This document shows positions 1,990 through 61,107 of a stretch of DNA of 64,000 bases, piece by piece. The stretch covers positions 6,509 through 70,508 of the forward strand of contig JBKQUS010000141.1 in assembly GCA_052325505.1 (NCBI GenBank). The letters are read 5' to 3'. The notes under the pieces were generated by a model, which was not told the origin of the DNA, did not search any database, and saw nothing but the letters and a program-made list of their open reading frames with translations. A program made the translations under genes and the position numbers. This DNA is from Limisphaerales bacterium (GTDB lineage Bacteria > Verrucomicrobiota > Verrucomicrobiia > Limisphaerales > Palsa-1400). The first letter of the stretch is position 1. Each line of letters begins with the position of its first letter.

Positions 1990-4449
1990 TCATTGAGTCT
2001 TTAGGCGGATGATGGTCAGGGAATTGGGCGGAAATATCTCGATAAAATTCGTCCCGGTCACCGCGATGGATCGAGTCACGGGCGCCACTTTGGGAGGGTC
2101 TCCCAATGTATTCTCGTCATCGGCGCTGCCGGAGGTCAGGACGGTTTCTTGCGCGGTTTCGGCCAGATGCGAAGCGCCTTCCAAATTGATCCGGGTTTCC
2201 TGTGGCTGGGATGAGACGTTCACGACATCCAACACAATGTCCCCGCCTGAACGGCCAGCCACGGAGTAAAGCCTCGGGACGGGCTTGCGTTCCGCCTGAT
2301 GAATCAGTTTCCCGTCCAGGTAAGCCATCATCTGGCCGTGGCGCAGTTCAATTTTAATGTCATACCAGCGGCCAGTATCAATCGAACCGGGCACATGGAG
2401 TGCTGCCGGCGCGCCTTGCAGGCCATGCTCTGTGTTGCCCCAGCCACCCAGGTTCCACCACGTTGGCGCGTTCATATTCGTGGTTTCAAAGAGGATCAGA
2501 AAACCCTCCTCGCCGCCAAGTTTCCTGGCGCGGAGCGTCAGCGTGTAGTCCTTCCACGATGGATCCCCCGTTACGGCGCGAACGTTTTCATCAGTCGCGC
2601 TCTGGCGCAACGCGCCATTGACGACCGACCAGTCGCCGCCGGCGGTTTTCCAGCCGTCCAATCCCTTGGCGAAGTCGCTTTCATACAAAGTCCGGCCCTC
2701 CGCGGAAACCACGCGGATGTCTTTGTATTCCGCCCGCGTCTTCCATGTGCCGACGCCGATCATGCCATGCGGATCCGGCGCATCCACCGGCGTTTTTACA
2801 CCGGTGGGCAAAACAACGTCGGGCCGGTTCCGGGCAAACAAGGCCTGGACATGGTAGTTCGGGGTCAACAAAACGCTGCTGTTGTCAAACCAAATTAAAT
2901 CAGGCCGCCATTGGGCGTGGCCCATTCTGGCCAATAATGGCGCGTAGGAAGCCATGGCCACGATGTCCGCATTGCGCAGCAGGCCGGTCATGTAGGCCGC
3001 CTCGGCCAGGGCGCAGCGTAGATTATTGCGGCGGTTGCCGTCATGGCCGGCAAATTCGCCGACAAAGATCTTCGGTCCATGCCGGTCATAGGCGGCGTAG
3101 CGGTCGCTGTTTTCCAAAAGCCATTGCGGAGGAACATAATAGTGCTCATCCACCAGATCGGCGGGCGTGCCCGTGCGGAATTTATTCCAGGCGAAGCGCC
3201 ACAGGCCGTCCCCCACAAGGGGGCCGGACGAACTGATGATCCGGATGCCGGGATATTTGGATTTGATGGCGCGGTAGAATACGTCGTAGCGGTCGAAGTA
3301 TCCTTGCAGCCACTGCTCGTTGCCGACGGCGAGAAATTTAAGGCCAAACGGTTTCGGATGTCCCATGGCCGCGCGCTTCAAGCCCCATTGGCTGGTTTCC
3401 GGGCCGTTGGCAAATTCGATCAAGTCCAACGCATCCTGCACCCAGGGACCAAGCTCATCCAGCGGCATGGGAATGCCACGCCGCGCCTGGCAAGTCATGC
3501 CGCAATTGATGACGGGCACGGGTTCGGCCCCAATGTCTTCGCAGAATTGAAAGTAATCGAAGAATCCCAGCCCATAGCTCTGATCATAGTGCGGCGATTG
3601 GGCGTCCTGCCAGATATTCCAGTTTTGTTTTCGTTCCGCCACGTCACCTATGGTGTCCTTCCAGCGATAGGCGTTGGCATAGTCTTTGCCTTCCACAACA
3701 CAGCCTCCGGGGAAACGAAGGAAGCCCGGTTTCATGTCCGCCAGCGCCTGCGCCAGGTCGCCTCGAAGGCCGTTGTGCCGTCCCCGGAAGGTTGTCTCCG
3801 GAAAGAGCGAAACCATATCCATATCGAGGGTCCCGGCTTTTGTGGCAAGGACAACCAAGCGTGCATTGGTCGCACTCGCGGTGCTGGTCATCGTAGCCTC
3901 AAATTTTTTCCAAGCCGGGCCGACATTCGTAATTTCGGAGGAAGCCAGAACGCGACTTTGGTCACCTTCGAGCAAGATGCGAAGGGCGGCCTCATCGCCG
4001 GCGCGCCGGCGCGCATAGATGGAAAAGAAGTAATGACCGCCTTTGGACAGCACGAGGCCATCGAAACCCGCGTTGGCCATCCCGTAGCCCTGCGTGCCGG
4101 GATCCATGACATAAAGGCGGAGAAAGTGGGTGTTGTTGGCGTTGAGCGGCTGCTCCGACTCCGTGCTGAACCGCCCTCGCGCGCCCTCCCGGGCCGCCTC
4201 GCTCCAGGCGTATAGATGTTCGCGATCTTCAAAGGAACGATTCTGGATCATTTCGGCGTACAACCCCCCGTCAGCGCCGTAGTTGATGTCTTCAAAAAAC
4301 AAGCCGTGCATCGTGGAGGGCACGGCTATTCCCGGATCGTTCACTTGCACGGTAACCTGCGCCGGTTCAGCGGCGCGGGCGCGGGCGATGCAGAGGGTCA
4401 AAAAAAGGATTTGTTGCAGAGTCGGGAATCTCATGTTTGTTTTTTTCAT
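1990..4449 (-). CDS. GH51 alpha-L-arabinofuranosidase with an extra C-terminal beta-sandwich domain, secreted
   Basis: I prefer the ATG at 4447-4449 (MKKTNMRFPTLQQILFLTLCIARARA, a signal peptide) over the upstream alternative start at 4491. Motifs NRSFEDR, LRFPGGCVVEG and FLAVGNEQW (the GNE acid/base context) fit GH51. The last ~230 aa (LDGWKTAGGDWSVVNGALRQ...) look like an appended concanavalin-like module. Confidence 0.8.
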   Translation of the reverse strand: MKKTNMRFPTLQQILFLTLCIARARAAEPAQVTVQVNDPGIAVPSTMHGLFFEDINYGADGGLYAEMIQNRSFEDREHLYAWSEAAREGARGRFSTESEQPLNANNTHFLRLYVMDPGTQGYGMANAGFDGLVLSKGGHYFFSIYARRRAGDEAALRILLEGDQSRVLASSEITNVGPAWKKFEATMTSTASATNARLVVLATKAGTLDMDMVSLFPETTFRGRHNGLRGDLAQALADMKPGFLRFPGGCVVEGKDYANAYRWKDTIGDVAERKQNWNIWQDAQSPHYDQSYGLGFFDYFQFCEDIGAEPVPVINCGMTCQARRGIPMPLDELGPWVQDALDLIEFANGPETSQWGLKRAAMGHPKPFGLKFLAVGNEQWLQGYFDRYDVFYRAIKSKYPGIRIISSSGPLVGDGLWRFAWNKFRTGTPADLVDEHYYVPPQWLLENSDRYAAYDRHGPKIFVGEFAGHDGNRRNNLRCALAEAAYMTGLLRNADIVAMASYAPLLARMGHAQWRPDLIWFDNSSVLLTPNYHVQALFARNRPDVVLPTGVKTPVDAPDPHGMIGVGTWKTRAEYKDIRVVSAEGRTLYESDFAKGLDGWKTAGGDWSVVNGALRQSATDENVRAVTGDPSWKDYTLTLRARKLGGEEGFLILFETTNMNAPTWWNLGGWGNTEHGLQGAPAALHVPGSIDTGRWYDIKIELRHGQMMAYLDGKLIHQAERKPVPRLYSVAGRSGGDIVLDVVNVSSQPQETRINLEGASHLAETAQETVLTSGSADDENTLGDPPKVAPVTRSIAVTGTNFIEIFPPNSLTIIRLKTQ

Positions 4450-55613: not shown

Positions 55614-55810
55614 AAAGGTAAATCACCTTAAAGCAGTTTAAGAAATGGCGTCCGGGCATGTTGTAACAATCCTGTCTCCAATATTTTAGAACTGCCCAAA
55701 GCTGGCTTCCGGCGCAGGCTGTACTTCATAATTTCCAAAATTTGAGTGCGGCACGGTTCCTGCGTTCTTCGCAAACGCGTGTCTCACCAACCCGCTTGTG
55801 CGGTTTGGGC

Positions 55811-55850
55811 GGGGGCTGGTCGAGCTCAACGACCGGCCCCCGTAATTTTT
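55811..55850 (+). terminator. Rho-independent terminator-like hairpin between the convergent CHAD and leuA genes
   Basis: GGGGGCTGGTCG-AGCTCAA-CGACCGGCCCCC (one G-T pair) followed by GTAATTTTT on the plus strand. There is no U-tract on the minus strand. Confidence 0.5.
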
Positions 55851-55871: not shown

Positions 55872-57446
55872 TTAAGGCGACGTGACAGGAGCCGATTTCC
55901 CATCGTCCTGACACAGAACGCGGTTGACGGCGTTCAGATAGGCGCGGGCGCTGGCTTCGATCACGTCGGTGCTGGCGCCTTTGCCCACGACGATCTTGCC
56001 CTTGCCGAAATCCACTTTGACCGTGACTTCGCCCAAGGCGTCCTTGCCTTGCGAAACGGCGCGCAATGAGTAATCCAGCAATGTGCCGTGCGTGGTGGTG
56101 AGGCGGTCAATCGCCTTCAAGGCGGCATCAACCGGCCCGTCGCCAATGCCGGCGTCCTGCACAAAAGAGGCCGCGGCCTTTTTGCCGGCGAGCTTTTGCA
56201 GACGGACCGTGGCCGTGGGCACGCTGCCGCTGCCGCTGGTCACGCTCAAATAATTGAGCGACCATGTTTCCGGGATTTCGGTGATGTGCCCCTCGACCAG
56301 CGCGGACAAATCGTCGTCGTAAACAAATTTCTTCTTGTCACCAATCTCCTTGAAGCGGGCGAAGATGGCGGCGACGTCGTCCCCGGTCATTTTGAAGCCG
56401 AGATGTTTCAAGCGGGCGGCGACCGCCGCGCGGCCGCTGTGCTTGGTCAAGGGCAGCTCGGTGCCGCCCCAGCCGACGATTTGCGGGTCCATGATTTCGT
56501 AGGTCTCGCGCTTCTTCAAAATGCCGTCCTGATGAATGCCGCTGGAATGGGCGAAGGCGTTTTCGCCGACGACGGCTTTGCTGCGCTGCACCATCAAGCC
56601 GCTCATGCGGGCGACCAGGCGCGAAGCCTTGAGAATCTCGCGCGTGTTCAATCCGCATTCAAACCGGCCGAAGAAATCGTCGCGCGTTTTGAGGGCCATG
56701 ACGATTTCCTCCATGGCGGCGTTGCCGGCGCGCTCGCCAATGCCGTTGACGGTGCATTCGACCTGCCGCGCCCCGTGGCCGACAGCGGCCAGCGAGTTGG
56801 CCACGGCCAAACCGAGATCGTTGTGGCAATGAACGCTGATGATGGACTTGCCGGATTGGAATTCCGGGACGGAATCGTAAAGATGTTGAATGAGCGCGCC
56901 GTATTGGTCCGGAACGGCCCAGCCGACGGTGTCCGGAATGTTGACCGTGGTTGCGCCCGCCGCCACTACAGCCCGGCAGACCTGCACCAGGAAATCCGGT
57001 TCGGTGCGCGACGCGTCCTCCGGCGAAAACTCCACATTGCTGACAAAGCCCTTGGCCCGTTTGACGCCGTCCACCGCCAGACGGAGAATTTCCGCCCGCG
57101 CCTTGTTCAATTTGAATTCACGATGGATTTTCGACGTGGCCAAAAAGACGTGAATGCGCCCGCGTTTGCCGGCGGGCTTGATGGCCTGTCCGGCGGCGTC
57201 GATGTCGCGCGGGACGCACCGGGCCAGTCCGCAAATCACCGGCCCCTTGATTTCCCGGGCGATGGTCTGGACGGCGGCAAAGTCGCCGTCGCTGATGACG
57301 GGGAAGCCGGCTTCGATCACATCGACGTTGAGGCGGGCCAGTTGCCGGGCGATTTCGAGCTTCTCGCGCAAGTTCATGGACGCGCCGGGGCATTGCTCGC
57401 CGTCGCGCAACGTGGTGTCGAATATGATGATTTGATCGTTTTTCAT
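55872..57446 (-). CDS. leuA: 2-isopropylmalate synthase
   Basis: I prefer the ATG at 57444-57446 (MKNDQIIIFDTTLRDGEQCPGASMN...) over the TTG at 57473. Motifs include HCHNDLGLAVANSLAAV and a C-terminal LeuA allosteric domain. Confidence 0.92.
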   Translation of the reverse strand: MKNDQIIIFDTTLRDGEQCPGASMNLREKLEIARQLARLNVDVIEAGFPVISDGDFAAVQTIAREIKGPVICGLARCVPRDIDAAGQAIKPAGKRGRIHVFLATSKIHREFKLNKARAEILRLAVDGVKRAKGFVSNVEFSPEDASRTEPDFLVQVCRAVVAAGATTVNIPDTVGWAVPDQYGALIQHLYDSVPEFQSGKSIISVHCHNDLGLAVANSLAAVGHGARQVECTVNGIGERAGNAAMEEIVMALKTRDDFFGRFECGLNTREILKASRLVARMSGLMVQRSKAVVGENAFAHSSGIHQDGILKKRETYEIMDPQIVGWGGTELPLTKHSGRAAVAARLKHLGFKMTGDDVAAIFARFKEIGDKKKFVYDDDLSALVEGHITEIPETWSLNYLSVTSGSGSVPTATVRLQKLAGKKAAASFVQDAGIGDGPVDAALKAIDRLTTTHGTLLDYSLRAVSQGKDALGEVTVKVDFGKGKIVVGKGASTDVIEASARAYLNAVNRVLCQDDGKSAPVTSP

Positions 57447-57464
57447 AATTCTTTGTTTGTTAGT

Positions 57465-57508
57465 AAAAAGCAAAAACCCCAGCGCCGGTTTTGTCGGCGA
57501 TGGGGTTT
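57465..57508 (-). terminator. Attenuator-type intrinsic terminator between the leader ORF and leuA
   Basis: The minus-strand RNA reads AAACCCCAUCGCCG-ACAAAAC-CGGCGCUGGGGUUU followed by UUGCUUUUU. The stem has 10 G/C-rich pairs plus one mismatch. The U-tract ends 18 nt before the leuA ATG. Confidence 0.65.
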
Positions 57509-57530
57509 GAAAATTCCTGTAAGCGAATAA

Positions 57531-57599
57531 TTAGACCTCGACCACCGCGCGACGCAGGAGCAGCGCGTTCAGCAACAGTCGCAGGTTCAAAATATTCAT
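57531..57599 (-). CDS. Putative 22-aa leucine-rich leader peptide (leuL-like)
   Basis: Below the ORF-track size cutoff. Hand translation gives ATG AAT ATT TTG AAC CTG CGA CTG TTG CTG AAC GCG CTG CTC CTG CGT CGC GCG GTG GTC GAG GTC TAA = MNILNLRLLLNALLLRRAVVEV, with 8 Leu including two LLL runs. Confidence 0.6.
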   Translation of the reverse strand: MNILNLRLLLNALLLRRAVVEV

Positions 57600-57609
57600 T
57601 ACGCGGCAT

Positions 57610-57638
57610 AAAATATGGCACATTCGATTTCATGTCAA
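57610..57638 (-). promoter_or_regulatory. Sigma70-like promoter candidate for the leader-leuA transcript
   Basis: On the minus strand, TTGACA (57638-57633) is followed by 17 nt and then TATTTT (57615-57610), preceded by an A7 tract. The leader ATG lies about 10 nt downstream of the -10 box. Confidence 0.4.
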
Positions 57639-57699
57639 CTTTTTTTAAACACGCTCTAACAGAAAGCGAACAATTCGATGCTTATCCGGTTTGTTGTCA

Positions 57700-58300
57700 A
57701 GACCCCTCTCTCCGGCTCTCTCCCTGCTACGCGGGGCGAGAGAGAATACACCGAATTGTCATGCTCACGGATGAGCATAAAATCACTTTGATTCACTTTG
57801 AGTAGTATGATCTGTTTATCCGCCGGTTGTTTTGTAAGACGTTCTTGTATAGAGCTTTGCATGCAATTTGGCCACCTGAGCAATGCTGAAGGCTAAAGGC
57901 AAGAAGTCTGAAGGCTGAAGTTCGGAAAAAGCACGAAACGAACGAAGATGGGCCACAGCTCCACACGGATTTGACTGCGACTCGCTGTGACCGGCTGCGA
58001 CGGGGTTTGATTGGAATCATATTTTTGGCCAGAAATCAAAGCGATTGCCGCCGACCTGCTGGCCAGCCTTGATGAGGGATCAGGATTAAGATTACGAGTA
58101 AGATGGGCCCCTCCCCCCGCATACCCTGAAAATTTTTCGCAAAATCCGAAAAACACTTGCCGTCCTTTTTGAGCGGAATGCACTGGCACGCAGCAGGTTC
58201 CAATCAGAAAATGGCAAAAATCGATTTTTCACTTTTTTCGGATTTCAAGGTTCTTTTTTTCTTTTTTTTGGTTTGAATCGGTTTGAAACGGCCGGAATCG
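57700..58300. repeat. Repeat-rich non-coding region B (shares units with region A)
   Basis: Positions 57779-57801 and 57974-58030 match region A. Other elements are the hairpin ATGCTCA-CGGA-TGAGCAT at 57760-57777, CTGAAGGCT x2 at 57886-57918, and T-rich/GGTTTGAA repeats at 58225-58290. Confidence 0.65.
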
Positions 58301-60809
58301 CCCTGAATTCGGGAGGACAATTCAGGCCAGGCAACAGATGGACTTGTCTGAGGCGACCAGGGGTCTGGAGCCGTCACACCGTCACAAATGCCGACACAAC
58401 CCGCCACGGCGCGGCAACAACGGGCACGCCCTTGCGGCACTTCGCCGGGTGGACAGGGGACGGGCACGAAGCGTTCGCCATACGTGTGAAGCCAAATCAG
58501 TCGGCGGCCAAGCCGTACGACTCGCAATAATAAACTGGGGTCTTTCGTTATCGGAACGTGCGGGCCGGGCACGGTAAGTTCTTCGGAAAATGTTTCGACG
58601 AACGCAGGCGAGGCGAGCAAAGCGTAGCAATACGCGAAGAAATCTTCCGCCGCGACGCTTTCCAAATGCGGATTCAGCGCGTCGAGTAACCCATTCGTGA
58701 TGTTGGCTTTGGTCGCTTCAGCATCGCGCCAAAGTGGAATGATGTCCTTGCCGCCCCGGCCACAGAAATAGTGGAGGTCTGGAACTGAGGCACTAATTGT
58801 GGCGGCTGGGCCAAGGCCAAGAACTCCCGCGATTAAACTCGTGAAATAAACCTGTCGGTCGCTTTTGACTTTCCAAAGTGGTGGCCGTGGCCTGTCGCAT
58901 AGCCTCGTATCGGGCAGCACCCATTGCCTGTCGAAGCTGCGGTAGCCGTATCGAATGGGTTCAATAGGTGGCTCATCGGTGGGCAATTCTTCGATAGCTT
59001 GGAGGCGATTCCTTTCTGGCAAGAATGACTCATATTTGCGGGTCGCCAAGCGGGCTGTTGTTTCGCGCATCAATTTTCCACGGTCATCAGGTGGTGCGGC
59101 CAAAAGCGCACTCCATCGTTGCCGTAGTATCACTGAAGTCTCGCCAATTGCCCAAGTACGCTTGTATTGAACCCCGGAATGTTGCCACGGGAACAAGTCC
59201 GTCAGCAGCGGCCATCCGAAATAGTTGCCATGACCTCGCGGCAGGAAGGGCTCAGACCATCCTTCAAAACATTCCTGCCATTGAAGATCCGCAAAGGTGC
59301 GAACCGCGTTGAGTTTGGCGAACTTTTCCTCGCGTGTCCCCGTGATGCGCGTGTGACGGACTCGCGCCACATTTTGCGGCTTTGGGTCGCCGTAACGAAC
59401 GCCGATGGCAATTGCGACGGGTGTCTGGATGTTGAAAACATTTTCGGTCTTTCGTGCGCCGAGGTTGTCGCCCTCCAAGTCAATTATCCAAAGATCGTCG
59501 AATGCTTCGCGCATTTTCCGTCGCATTCCTACGAAGCCAGGCCCACGCAGGTAAGAGGCAGCGATGATGAACGTGATAATTCCCGGCCCGCTTGCGGCTG
59601 GATTCTCAAAAAGTTTCCATAACGCCCAGCGCCAGAAGAAAACATAATCGTTGTACAGATTCTTGACATGAACCCCTGCGCCAGCGGCGGAAGCCGGGTC
59701 AATGAAATCTTGGAGAATCGGGCGTGTCCGCCAGCCAGCATGTGCAGGGTCCGGGTCGCCGTGACGAACCCATCCGCCTTTGCGCATGTGTTCCGGGCGT
59801 TCGCCGCCCTCTGCTTGCTCGCGGTCGTAAGGCGGATTGCCCATGCACACGAGCACGCGTGTGCCCTTCTTTACGCGCTGAGCACGCCGGTGTTCGTCAG
59901 TCAAAGGGCGGGCGAAGACGTTCAGCACGAGCGGTTCGACATTTGGCGACTCAAGGGTGTCGGTCAGGTAAACCTTTATACCCTCTTGGGGAAGCGTGCC
60001 GTGGTAACTGGTAATGAGCTGCGTGAGACGCAAATGAGCCACAGCGTAGGGGCCAACCATGTTCTCAAAAGCGTGGATGTTCTCCGCGCACTTCGATGCC
60101 GCGCCAGGGAGAATACCAAGACCAAAACGTTCGCCAGATTGCCGCAAGGCATATTCCGCAGCCGCCAACGGATAGGCCGCCGTGCCAGCAGCGGGGTCGA
60201 GGAAAATCACGCCATCATCGGCGAATGTGCGGCGTTTGTTGAACCGCGTTTCAAGAAGTTCCCCTGCGAGACGCACCTGAGCGCCGATGACAGCCTGCGG
60301 CGTGTAATAGACGCCTTGATCTCTGCGGAGTTTCGGGTCATACGCTGCGAGGAAATCCTCGTAGAAGTATAGCCAAGGGTCGCCTGGTTGGAGCCGCTCC
60401 GGGATAACTGCGGTAATAACTCGTTCCAGCAAGTCCACCGCGATTTTGATTTCGTTGCGGGCTTCAGGCTGGACCAACACGCGCAGCGTTTGGGCCAAAA
60501 GGCCGTGGCCACTGTCGAGAGCGCGGGCAGCGGAATCGGTGGTAACGGCCCCGAATCAATCCTGATTCGCCTGCCTACATACAGTTCAGATTGATCAACA
60601 ACTTTAGGCTCAACCGTGATCGTTCCAGTGTCGTCATACTCCAACTGCGTGCTGTCGTTGTAGGAAATCTGACGCGCCGCTGCCTGAATTACGCGCCGTA
60701 CGCCAGACTTGAGTTGATCTTCCGGTTGGGCCACGATACGAGAACGGAAGTTGCGCCTTAAGTCTTGCGCGAACTCGCGCAGGACATTTTTGAATTCAAC
60801 CGCTGGCAT
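58204..60809 (-). pseudogene. Type ISP/IIG-like N6-adenine DNA methyltransferase, apparently frameshifted near 60550 and 3'-truncated
   Basis: Main frame (from 60555 down): FYEDFLAAYDPKLRRDQGVYYTPQAV, VIFLDPAAGTAAYPL (motif I), LVCMGNPPYDREQ (motif IV, NPPY), NLYNDYVFFWRWALWKL, IIAASYLRGPGFVGMRRKMREAFDDLWIIDLEGDN. The likely N-terminus (ATG 60809, MPAVEFKNVLREFAQDLRRNF...VEPKV...) is in another frame and the two frames meet at GGGGCC (~60547-60552). The last ~60 codons read into repeat DNA (..RFKPIQTKKKKKRTLKSEKSEKS). Confidence 0.55.
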
Positions 60810-61107
60810 CTGAGCCGAACGGTAACAAACGGAGTGCGGCGGGGGCAAGTCCGCTTTGTGCGTGGTCTTGACTGATGGGAGCGCCCTCCCTGGCAACGGA
60901 ATCTCACCTGAATTTGAAATTGGAGATTGGAGATTTCAAACCGAGGTTGCGGTTTGTCCCACGGCAGGACATGGTTTTGACTGTTCTGTCCATTCCCGGC
61001 TGTTTTTGGCGGAAAACACCGATTCCGACAGGGCATCTCACCCCGGAAAGGCAGTCGGATCGAATGTTGGCATCGGTGATGCTTAACAAATTGGTATGGA
61101 TAGTACA

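Follow-up and report, generated by a model that had tools for sequence, protein, structure and literature searches.

The window analysed here is a stretch of 64,000 nucleotides (nt) from a Limisphaerales bacterium of the Verrucomicrobiota (GenBank assembly GCA_052325505.1, contig JBKQUS010000141.1, positions 6,509 to 70,508 of the forward strand). Its minus strand carries leuA, whose product is identified as a 2-isopropylmalate synthase (IPMS) by NF002086 (741.8 bits, cut-off 532) and TIGR00973 (687.7 bits, cut-off 598.7). Directly upstream of this gene, a preliminary description had pointed to a promoter, a leucine-rich open reading frame (ORF) of 22 codons and a hairpin with a U-rich tail, and had proposed that leuA is controlled by transcription attenuation. 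In this study, we examined this candidate leader in the window and in related genomes. Promoter, ORF, hairpin, tail and leuA ATG are all present where they had been placed. The features are listed below in the coordinates of the window; all lie on the minus strand and are read 5' to 3' toward leuA.

57640-57646, minus strand: A-rich tract aaaaaaa, read directly from the sequence, adjoining the -35 box on its upstream side
57633-57638, minus strand: -35 hexamer TTGACA, from the sequence and a promoter scan
57610-57615, minus strand: -10 hexamer TATTTT, separated from TTGACA by a 17-nt spacer
57600-57602, minus strand: predicted transcription start, GUA, placed from alignment columns 16-21 and promoter geometry
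57531-57599, minus strand: leader ORF MNILNLRLLLNALLLRRAVVEV, 22 codons plus TAA (ATG at 57599, TAA at 57533-57531)
57570-57584, minus strand: region 1, the first Leu run, formed by codons 6-10 (CUG CGA CUG UUG CUG); base-paired to region 2 in the minimum free energy (MFE) fold, which represents the RNA with the ribosome absent
57555-57563, minus strand: second Leu run, codons 13-15 (CUG CUC CUG), in or around the loop of the inner hairpin
57548-57567, minus strand: inner hairpin inside the ORF, Ala-Leu codons (consensus GCGCUG) against Ser/Arg-Ala codons (CAGCGC)
57535-57553, minus strand: region 2, 5' strand of the predicted antiterminator, codons 16-22 (GUCG.GCGGUGG....GGU), from truncated folds and covariation
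57495-57508, minus strand: region 3, 5' arm of the terminator, AAACCCCAUCGCCG, common to antiterminator and terminator
57474-57487, minus strand: region 4, 3' arm of the terminator, CGGCGCUGGGGUUU
57465-57473, minus strand: U tract UUGCUUUUU, 18 nt before the leuA ATG (57446)
55872-57446, minus strand: leuA, IPMS of 524 amino acids (aa), the presumed regulated gene, which stands alone

The leader ORF of the window contains eight Leu among its 22 codons, with two Leu-Leu-Leu runs. A spacer of 22 nt separates its TAA from the hairpin AAACCCCAUCGCCG-ACAAAAC-CGGCGCUGGGGUUU (57508-57474), which has a predicted energy of -21.3 kcal/mol and a single U:C mismatch. The 179-nt leader as a whole folds at -55.7 kcal/mol, versus -43.5 +/- 3.9 kcal/mol for dinucleotide shuffles (z = -3.2). 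With 10 of 12 matches, TTGACA-17-TATTTT is the top minus-strand site of a 3-kb promoter scan, tied by one plus-strand site; the scan found four sites against 1.0 expected, and no further minus-strand site between this promoter and the leuA ATG. Moreover, the hairpin lies only 27 nt from the leuA ATG. A separate leuA promoter would not fit into this interval, so transcription of leuA must pass through the terminator. The whole window was also scanned for terminators preceded by a small ORF that contains an amino-acid run. Of 52 terminator-like hairpins, only this one had a leader-like arrangement; three further small-ORF matches in the scan lacked an amino-acid run of regulatory appearance.

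Relatives were collected by scanning one genome per species with the LeuA protein, which yielded 80 loci, 79 of which retain upstream sequence. Nearly all of their record titles name Verrucomicrobiota, many of them Limisphaerales, Pedosphaera or Verrucomicrobiia. LeuA identity across these loci ranges from 97% down to 68%, and the best matches are Verrucomicrobiota metagenome-assembled genomes (MAGs), in keeping with the earlier impression of a Verrucomicrobia-like genome. About 60 loci carry a Leu-rich mini-ORF with the consensus (V/M)NxNLNLRLLLNALLLSRAAVG(V/F), and in about 60 there is a conserved terminator, AACCCCACUGCC-loop-GGCGGUGGGGUU with a run of Us behind it. The gap between stop codon and terminator in relatives is 16-28 nt, mostly 17-25. 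A covariance model, R1, was built on 60 aligned sequences and run against 614 kb. It scored the window at 117 bits and matched 65 of the 79 Verrucomicrobiota loci, so that mini-ORF and hairpin, whose conservation the preliminary description had left to be checked, are kept upstream of leuA in most relatives. Each source gave exactly one full-length match, always just upstream of leuA and on the same strand, and six loci outside the seed were recovered (L021, L031, L035, L038, L040 and L052; E <= 1e-18). Within the 64-kb window, neither a second R1 copy nor a further unit of leader ORF and terminator was found. The genes flanking leuA differ at nearly every locus, with 55 upstream clusters among about 72 loci, which indicates that the leader element belongs to leuA and not to a neighbour.

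The linkage extends beyond the LeuA type of the window. Metagenome contigs were scanned for the exact terminator motif, and 80 loci were returned. At least 59 of them have leuA directly downstream on the same strand; in 17 the contig ends too early to tell, and in one leuA lies about 535 nt downstream. Two of these loci, L099 and L115, carry a complete element (98 and 106 bits with R1) before a long-form IPMS, whose N-terminus matches NF002991 (E = 1e-47) and TIGR00970 (E = 1e-44) and is not of the TIGR00973 type seen in the window. That the element accompanies two IPMS genes that are not orthologous points to a functional link with the first step of leucine synthesis. The element is located at L099:1342-1473(-) and L115:449-580(-), roughly 130-240 nt upstream of the long-form gene, which appears to be frameshifted in the L099 contig. 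The last of the 80 metagenome loci, L087, gave a hairpin-only match and was treated as an ordinary terminator.

Several properties of the leader ORF are those expected of a translated frame. Among 57 homologous leaders, 52 encode 22-25 aa, and Leu accounts for 30.4% of the residues, the next most frequent being Ala (12%). All six Leu codons are used, CUG being commoner in the leaders than in leuA (48% vs 25%) and CUC rarer (9% vs 33%). The stop codons stand at one shared position as TAA (22), TGA (20) or TAG (15). An ATG or GTG triplet 28-34 nt past the -35 hexamer is found in 56 of 59 loci, and 59 of the 61 such triplets are in the Leu frame. With frame, start and stop all conserved, the ORF appears to be kept as a translated frame. 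A 57-aa ORF in another frame (57460-57633) was rejected. It begins inside the promoter and reads through the terminator, and in relatives it is disrupted by spacer indels that are not multiples of three.

The RNA structures are supported by covariation in the 60-sequence alignment. The terminator (columns 139-151 against 168-180) is 94% paired, versus at most 59% in slid controls. Compensatory changes occur at 11 of its 13 pairs (pair 146-173, for example, is AU in 38 sequences and GC in 17), and none of 500 shuffles equalled it on any measure. The tail of the ORF (columns 91-106) pairs with the 5' arm of the terminator (columns 140-151) at a frequency of 84%, versus at most 53% in slid controls. 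This pairing includes the covarying pairs 97-148 (AU 26, GC 15, GU 15) and 99-146 (UA 33, UG 10, CG 9), and its covariation score was reached in 0 of 500 shuffles. In effect, the codons of the peptide tail AAVGV (GCN GCN GUN GGN GUN) are a second copy of the 3' arm of the terminator. Thus, the ORF tail, by covarying with the terminator 5' arm, can be assigned as the antiterminator. The inner hairpin (GCGCUG against CAGCGC) is also well supported, with 80% pairing versus at most 49% in slid controls, changes on both sides at six of six pairs, and a covariation score that none of 500 shuffles reached.

Folding of partial transcripts is consistent with this assignment. To represent the nascent RNA, transcripts were cut before region 4 and a ribosome footprint was placed on the first Leu run. 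In these co-transcriptional folds, 46 of 57 loci show pairing of region 3 to region 2, over a median of 11 nt and, in the window, over 12 of 14 nt. The antiterminator had been called weak on first reading. This view needs revision, as in the nascent RNA of the window it amounts to 14 bp (GUCG:CGAC, GCGGUGG:CCAUCGC and GGU:ACC) and covaries in relatives. Across loci, the duplex of regions 2 and 3 has a mean energy of -16.3 kcal/mol, versus -22.9 kcal/mol for the terminator, and a mean z of -1.95 relative to shuffles.

In 59 of 60 aligned loci, TTGAC stands at the position that corresponds to the -35 box of the window, in most of them preceded by A-rich runs such as the tract at 57640-57646, which is possibly an UP-element-like feature. 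With a 17-nt spacer, the next hexamer has T at its first position in 43 of 50 loci and A at its second in 42 of 50. The leader start codon (ATG in 32 loci, GTG in 25) follows the TAnnnn -10 box by 6-10 nt, and in 50 of 58 loci it is found 29-33 nt from the -35 hexamer. In the window, 10 nt lie between TATTTT and the leader ATG (57599); the GTG of the alignment is replaced by GTA in this clade, the next codon being ATG, and the predicted 5' untranslated region (UTR) is about 3 nt long. Because the start codon stands at or near the expected start of transcription, there is no space for a Shine-Dalgarno (SD) sequence. SD-like motifs are present in only 4 of 57 leaders and before leuA in 6 of 57; none is visible before leuA of the window. 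Judging from the promoter geometry, we consider it fairly likely that the leader is translated from a leaderless mRNA. Verrucomicrobiota use few Shine-Dalgarno sequences. Among known systems, the trpL attenuator of Sinorhizobium meliloti belongs to those with a leaderless leader ORF. The promoter consensus of the clade (57597-57646 in the window; L001-L074) consists of an A-rich tract, TTGAC(N), 17 nt and TAnnnn with a weak 3' half. Together with the rarity of SD motifs, it hints at an unusual -10 element and at SD-independent initiation in these organisms.

Altogether, these data make it very probable that the element is a ribosome-mediated leader-peptide transcription attenuator, which would couple leuA to the supply of charged tRNA-Leu. 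The proposal in the preliminary description, based on the layout in one genome, has thus gained comparative support from the ORF, the terminator and the antiterminator. In this mechanism, transcription would begin at the leader start codon or no more than about 3 nt away from it, and a ribosome would bind the nascent RNA at its 5' end and translate the 22-codon ORF. When leucine is plentiful, the ribosome would reach the stop codon and cover region 2. The terminator, formed by regions 3 and 4 with the U tract, could then fold 22 nt downstream, and the polymerase would halt 18 nt before leuA. When charged tRNA-Leu is scarce, the ribosome would stall on the first Leu run, in region 1, and leave region 2 free to capture region 3 as soon as it is transcribed; the terminator would be blocked and leuA transcribed. 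If no ribosome is present, region 1 is expected to pair with region 2, and termination would follow. Charging of tRNA-Leu would in this way control read-through. Apart from the pairing of regions 1 and 2, for which the evidence is divided, every sequence-level feature of attenuation that can be examined in silico was found, and the interpretation is supported in this sense.

Some observations weigh against this interpretation. The helix between regions 1 and 2 (columns 46-53 against 89-99) is part of the MFE fold of the window and is 76% paired over the 60 sequences, but its covariation does not exceed that of shuffles and controls in this alignment, and we keep it only as a prediction. In the window clade, the duplex of regions 2 and 3 is only modestly more stable than its background (-14.1 vs -10.7 kcal/mol for shuffles, z about -1.4). 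From the geometry of the footprint, stalling on the last codons of the second Leu run would leave part of region 2 covered by the ribosome, so that not all Leu codons can act alike. Inside the ORF body, 299 of 300 gap runs have a length divisible by three, while gaps in the non-coding spacer are of every length, but this pattern may partly stem from the alignment of CTG repeats and was given less weight. Moreover, thermodynamic switching had to be rejected. When a 30-nt ribosome mask was placed at each Leu codon of the full 141-nt leader, the terminator formed every time. As the terminator always wins at equilibrium on the full-length leader, the switch would have to be kinetic, as is usual for attenuators. 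Of the mutually exclusive folds envisaged in the preliminary description, the antiterminator is obtained in truncated RNAs, and full-length equilibrium folds give the terminator only. Finally, codon mutations in the leuA leader of Streptomyces did not follow the prediction of classical attenuation (PMC1262725), and hence a Leu-rich upstream ORF (uORF) is in itself no proof.

This precedent bears on a different explanation, in which the element would act as RNA only or by binding a protein, as a leucine riboswitch-like structure or a regulator site. The ORF would then be incidental, a view put forward for the actinobacterial LEU element. Besides the Leu codon mutations that did not act as expected there (PMC1262725), this explanation could draw on the fact that peptide conservation largely overlaps the paired segments: AAVGV coincides with the antiterminator strand and ALL...SA with the inner hairpin. 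Against this explanation, an in-frame start codon is fixed at the predicted transcription start in 56 of 59 loci, all three stop codons occur at a single position, and the enrichment in Leu is achieved through six synonymous codons. Rfam searches returned no riboswitch or T-box match, and the alignment has no large conserved unpaired core of the ligand-pocket type. We therefore regard this explanation as improbable.

The leader could also be read as an independent small gene, encoding a Leu-rich hydrophobic micro-protein or a small RNA (sRNA), that happens to lie next to a leuA expressed from elsewhere. It does have its own promoter and terminator, which would delimit a transcript of about 140 nt, and sRNAs derived from attenuators as well as trans-acting leader peptides have been described for Sinorhizobium (PMC6614838, PMC7298713). 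In the window, though, the 27 nt between hairpin and ATG offer no space for a leuA promoter. The strict link in strand and position to two IPMS subfamilies in unrelated contexts is not expected of a bystander, and a plain gene with its terminator would have no use for an ORF tail that covaries with the terminator arm. A function in trans could add to attenuation but not replace it, and as a full account of the locus the small gene is very unlikely. Still less credible is that the hairpin merely terminates the upstream gene and that the ORF is a chance open frame. A 764-aa gene (58204-60498) does lie upstream on the same strand, but a gap of 566 nt and the promoter separate it from the leader. 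Upstream neighbours vary in nearly all loci and are often divergent, and the ORF is kept in about 65 genomes, so that we give this explanation hardly any weight.

Among known systems, the enterobacterial leuL-leuABCD leader resembles the attenuator proposed here in logic and layout: an ORF with a Leu run, about 20 nt, a G+C-rich terminator with a U tract, and an IPMS gene. E. coli K-12 has the leader peptide MTHIVRFIGLLLLNASSLRGRRVSGIQH, with a terminator beginning about 22 nt past the stop codon. There are also clear differences. A GGAG Shine-Dalgarno sequence and a 5' UTR precede leuL in E. coli, whereas the start codon of the verrucomicrobial leader stands at the predicted transcription start; leuL has one run of four Leu, whereas the window has two Leu runs; and it controls leuABCD, whereas the window has a lone leuA. 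RNA homology between the two was rejected, since the match of R1 in the E. coli region is confined to the generic terminator (12 bits). The E. coli peptide (L081:323-409; ..GLLLLNASSLRGRRVSG..) and the verrucomicrobial consensus (..RLLLNALLLSRAAVGV) both have LLLNA and a downstream R...V.G, a likeness that is probably due to convergence or chance.

Leucine-rich or leaderless leaders have been described in other phyla. The actinobacterial LEU element is likewise a Leu-codon uORF upstream of leuA outside the Proteobacteria. It forms a pseudoknot between the Leu codons and the leuA Shine-Dalgarno box and has no terminator (Seliverstov et al. 2005, PMC1262725), and classical attenuation is not considered to be its mechanism (PMC1262725). 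In the verrucomicrobial element, by contrast, terminator and antiterminator covary, and there is no pairing with an SD sequence. Mycobacterial polycysteine small ORFs (sORFs) are leaderless ORFs rich in the cognate amino acid (AUG or GUG start, no Shine-Dalgarno sequence) that control downstream biosynthetic genes (bioRxiv 10.1101/834739). They resemble the verrucomicrobial element in the position of the start codon, which is predicted from promoter geometry in the latter, and differ from it in phylum, amino acid and sequence. In addition, the mycobacterial Cys elements have been described without an obvious intrinsic terminator (PMC1262725), unlike the canonical terminator/antiterminator pair found here. 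In Firmicutes, the ilv-leu operon of Staphylococcus aureus has a leucine-rich attenuator peptide (PMC5794164). Firmicute leaders of branched-chain amino acid (BCAA) genes and T-box leaders share with our element premature termination in response to tRNA-Leu charging, a response that is presumed for the latter. They differ from it in operon context and sequence, and the verrucomicrobial element has no T-box features.

A permissive Rfam search of window positions 56900-58300 returned no Leu_leader (RF00512), T-box or other leader at E <= 10, and a search of 20 related loci at gathering scores gave no match. Weak hits to Srn266, a snoRNA and L10_leader (E 0.3-2.9) were discarded, as they covered the terminator hairpin only. 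In the literature searched, we found no description of an amino-acid attenuator from Verrucomicrobiota or the PVC group, although a prior mention is not fully excluded. The novelty suggested in the preliminary description holds as far as it was checked in Rfam and in this literature. On the sequence evidence, the element is a new and well-conserved family of a known mechanism, ribosome-mediated attenuation, and not a new principle. We see the arguments as evenly balanced for a wider proposal that joins several parts: that this is possibly the first leader-peptide attenuator family for Verrucomicrobiota and the PVC group, that its leader is leaderless (5'-AUG/GUG), that it was recruited before two non-orthologous IPMS genes, and that a second, terminator-less type may exist in Chthoniobacterales.

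If attenuation operates as proposed, classical attenuation with its four recognisable RNA regions would extend to a major, mostly uncultured phylum of soil and freshwater. Translation of the leader from a leaderless transcript would also imply efficient initiation of this kind and tight coupling of transcription and translation in Verrucomicrobiota; to our knowledge, neither has been documented in this phylum. The geometry from promoter to start codon amounts to a testable prediction of leaderless translation in these bacteria. In addition, R1 and its seed alignment, with about 65 genome sequences, are ready for use as an RNA family that is missing from Rfam. For genome annotation, the element can be used to locate the actual leuA promoter and a small ORF that annotations lack so far. 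The losses of the leader described below, along with its two types of IPMS partner, provide material on the gain and loss of attenuators.

At five loci (L029, L042, L044, L053 and L062) the leader ORF is gone, and the ~260 nt next to leuA contain only a decayed hairpin and a T tract. Their upstream neighbour is divergent and is also found at L033, L047 and L052, where the attenuator is retained. Within this syntenic group, the five loci appear to have lost the element naturally. Four loci titled Chthoniobacterales, Spartobacteria or, for L079, uncultured Verrucomicrobiae (L076-L079, at 2830-3010 in each) have a different Leu-rich uORF (...LLLAPRLGLLPSRLTLLS*) before leuA. Its internal hairpin, TCGACTCGGG-TTGC-TCCCGAGCCGA, is strictly conserved, and the end of a second stem (CCGGCGG...CCGCCGG) lies about 18 nt before the ATG. 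A U tract is absent from all four sequences. These four sequences may represent a second, terminator-independent type of Leu leader. Near-identical verrucomicrobial leuA loci were also found in MAGs titled Baltobacteraceae, Akkermansia (muciniphila) or Saccharibacteria (L009, L016, L023, L034, L041 and L075), which suggests mis-binning or mislabelled taxonomy in public records.

The neighbours of leuA in the window are unrelated genes. Upstream lies the 764-aa gene at 58204-60498 (minus strand), whose product has a Type_ISP_C domain (E = 2e-57) and weak N6_Mtase domains and looks like a Type ISP restriction-modification-like enzyme. As listed, this ORF begins at TTG; its N-terminus may be truncated or fused, and another ORF (60207-60896) overlaps and precedes it. 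Downstream are a convergent gene for a CHAD-domain protein and a gene for a GDP-mannose dehydratase. Between leuA and the CHAD-domain gene, a strong G+C-rich hairpin of 14 bp, GCGGGGGCTGGTCG-AGCTCAA-CGACCGGCCCCCGT, occupies positions 55809-55843 and is probably the terminator of the CHAD gene.

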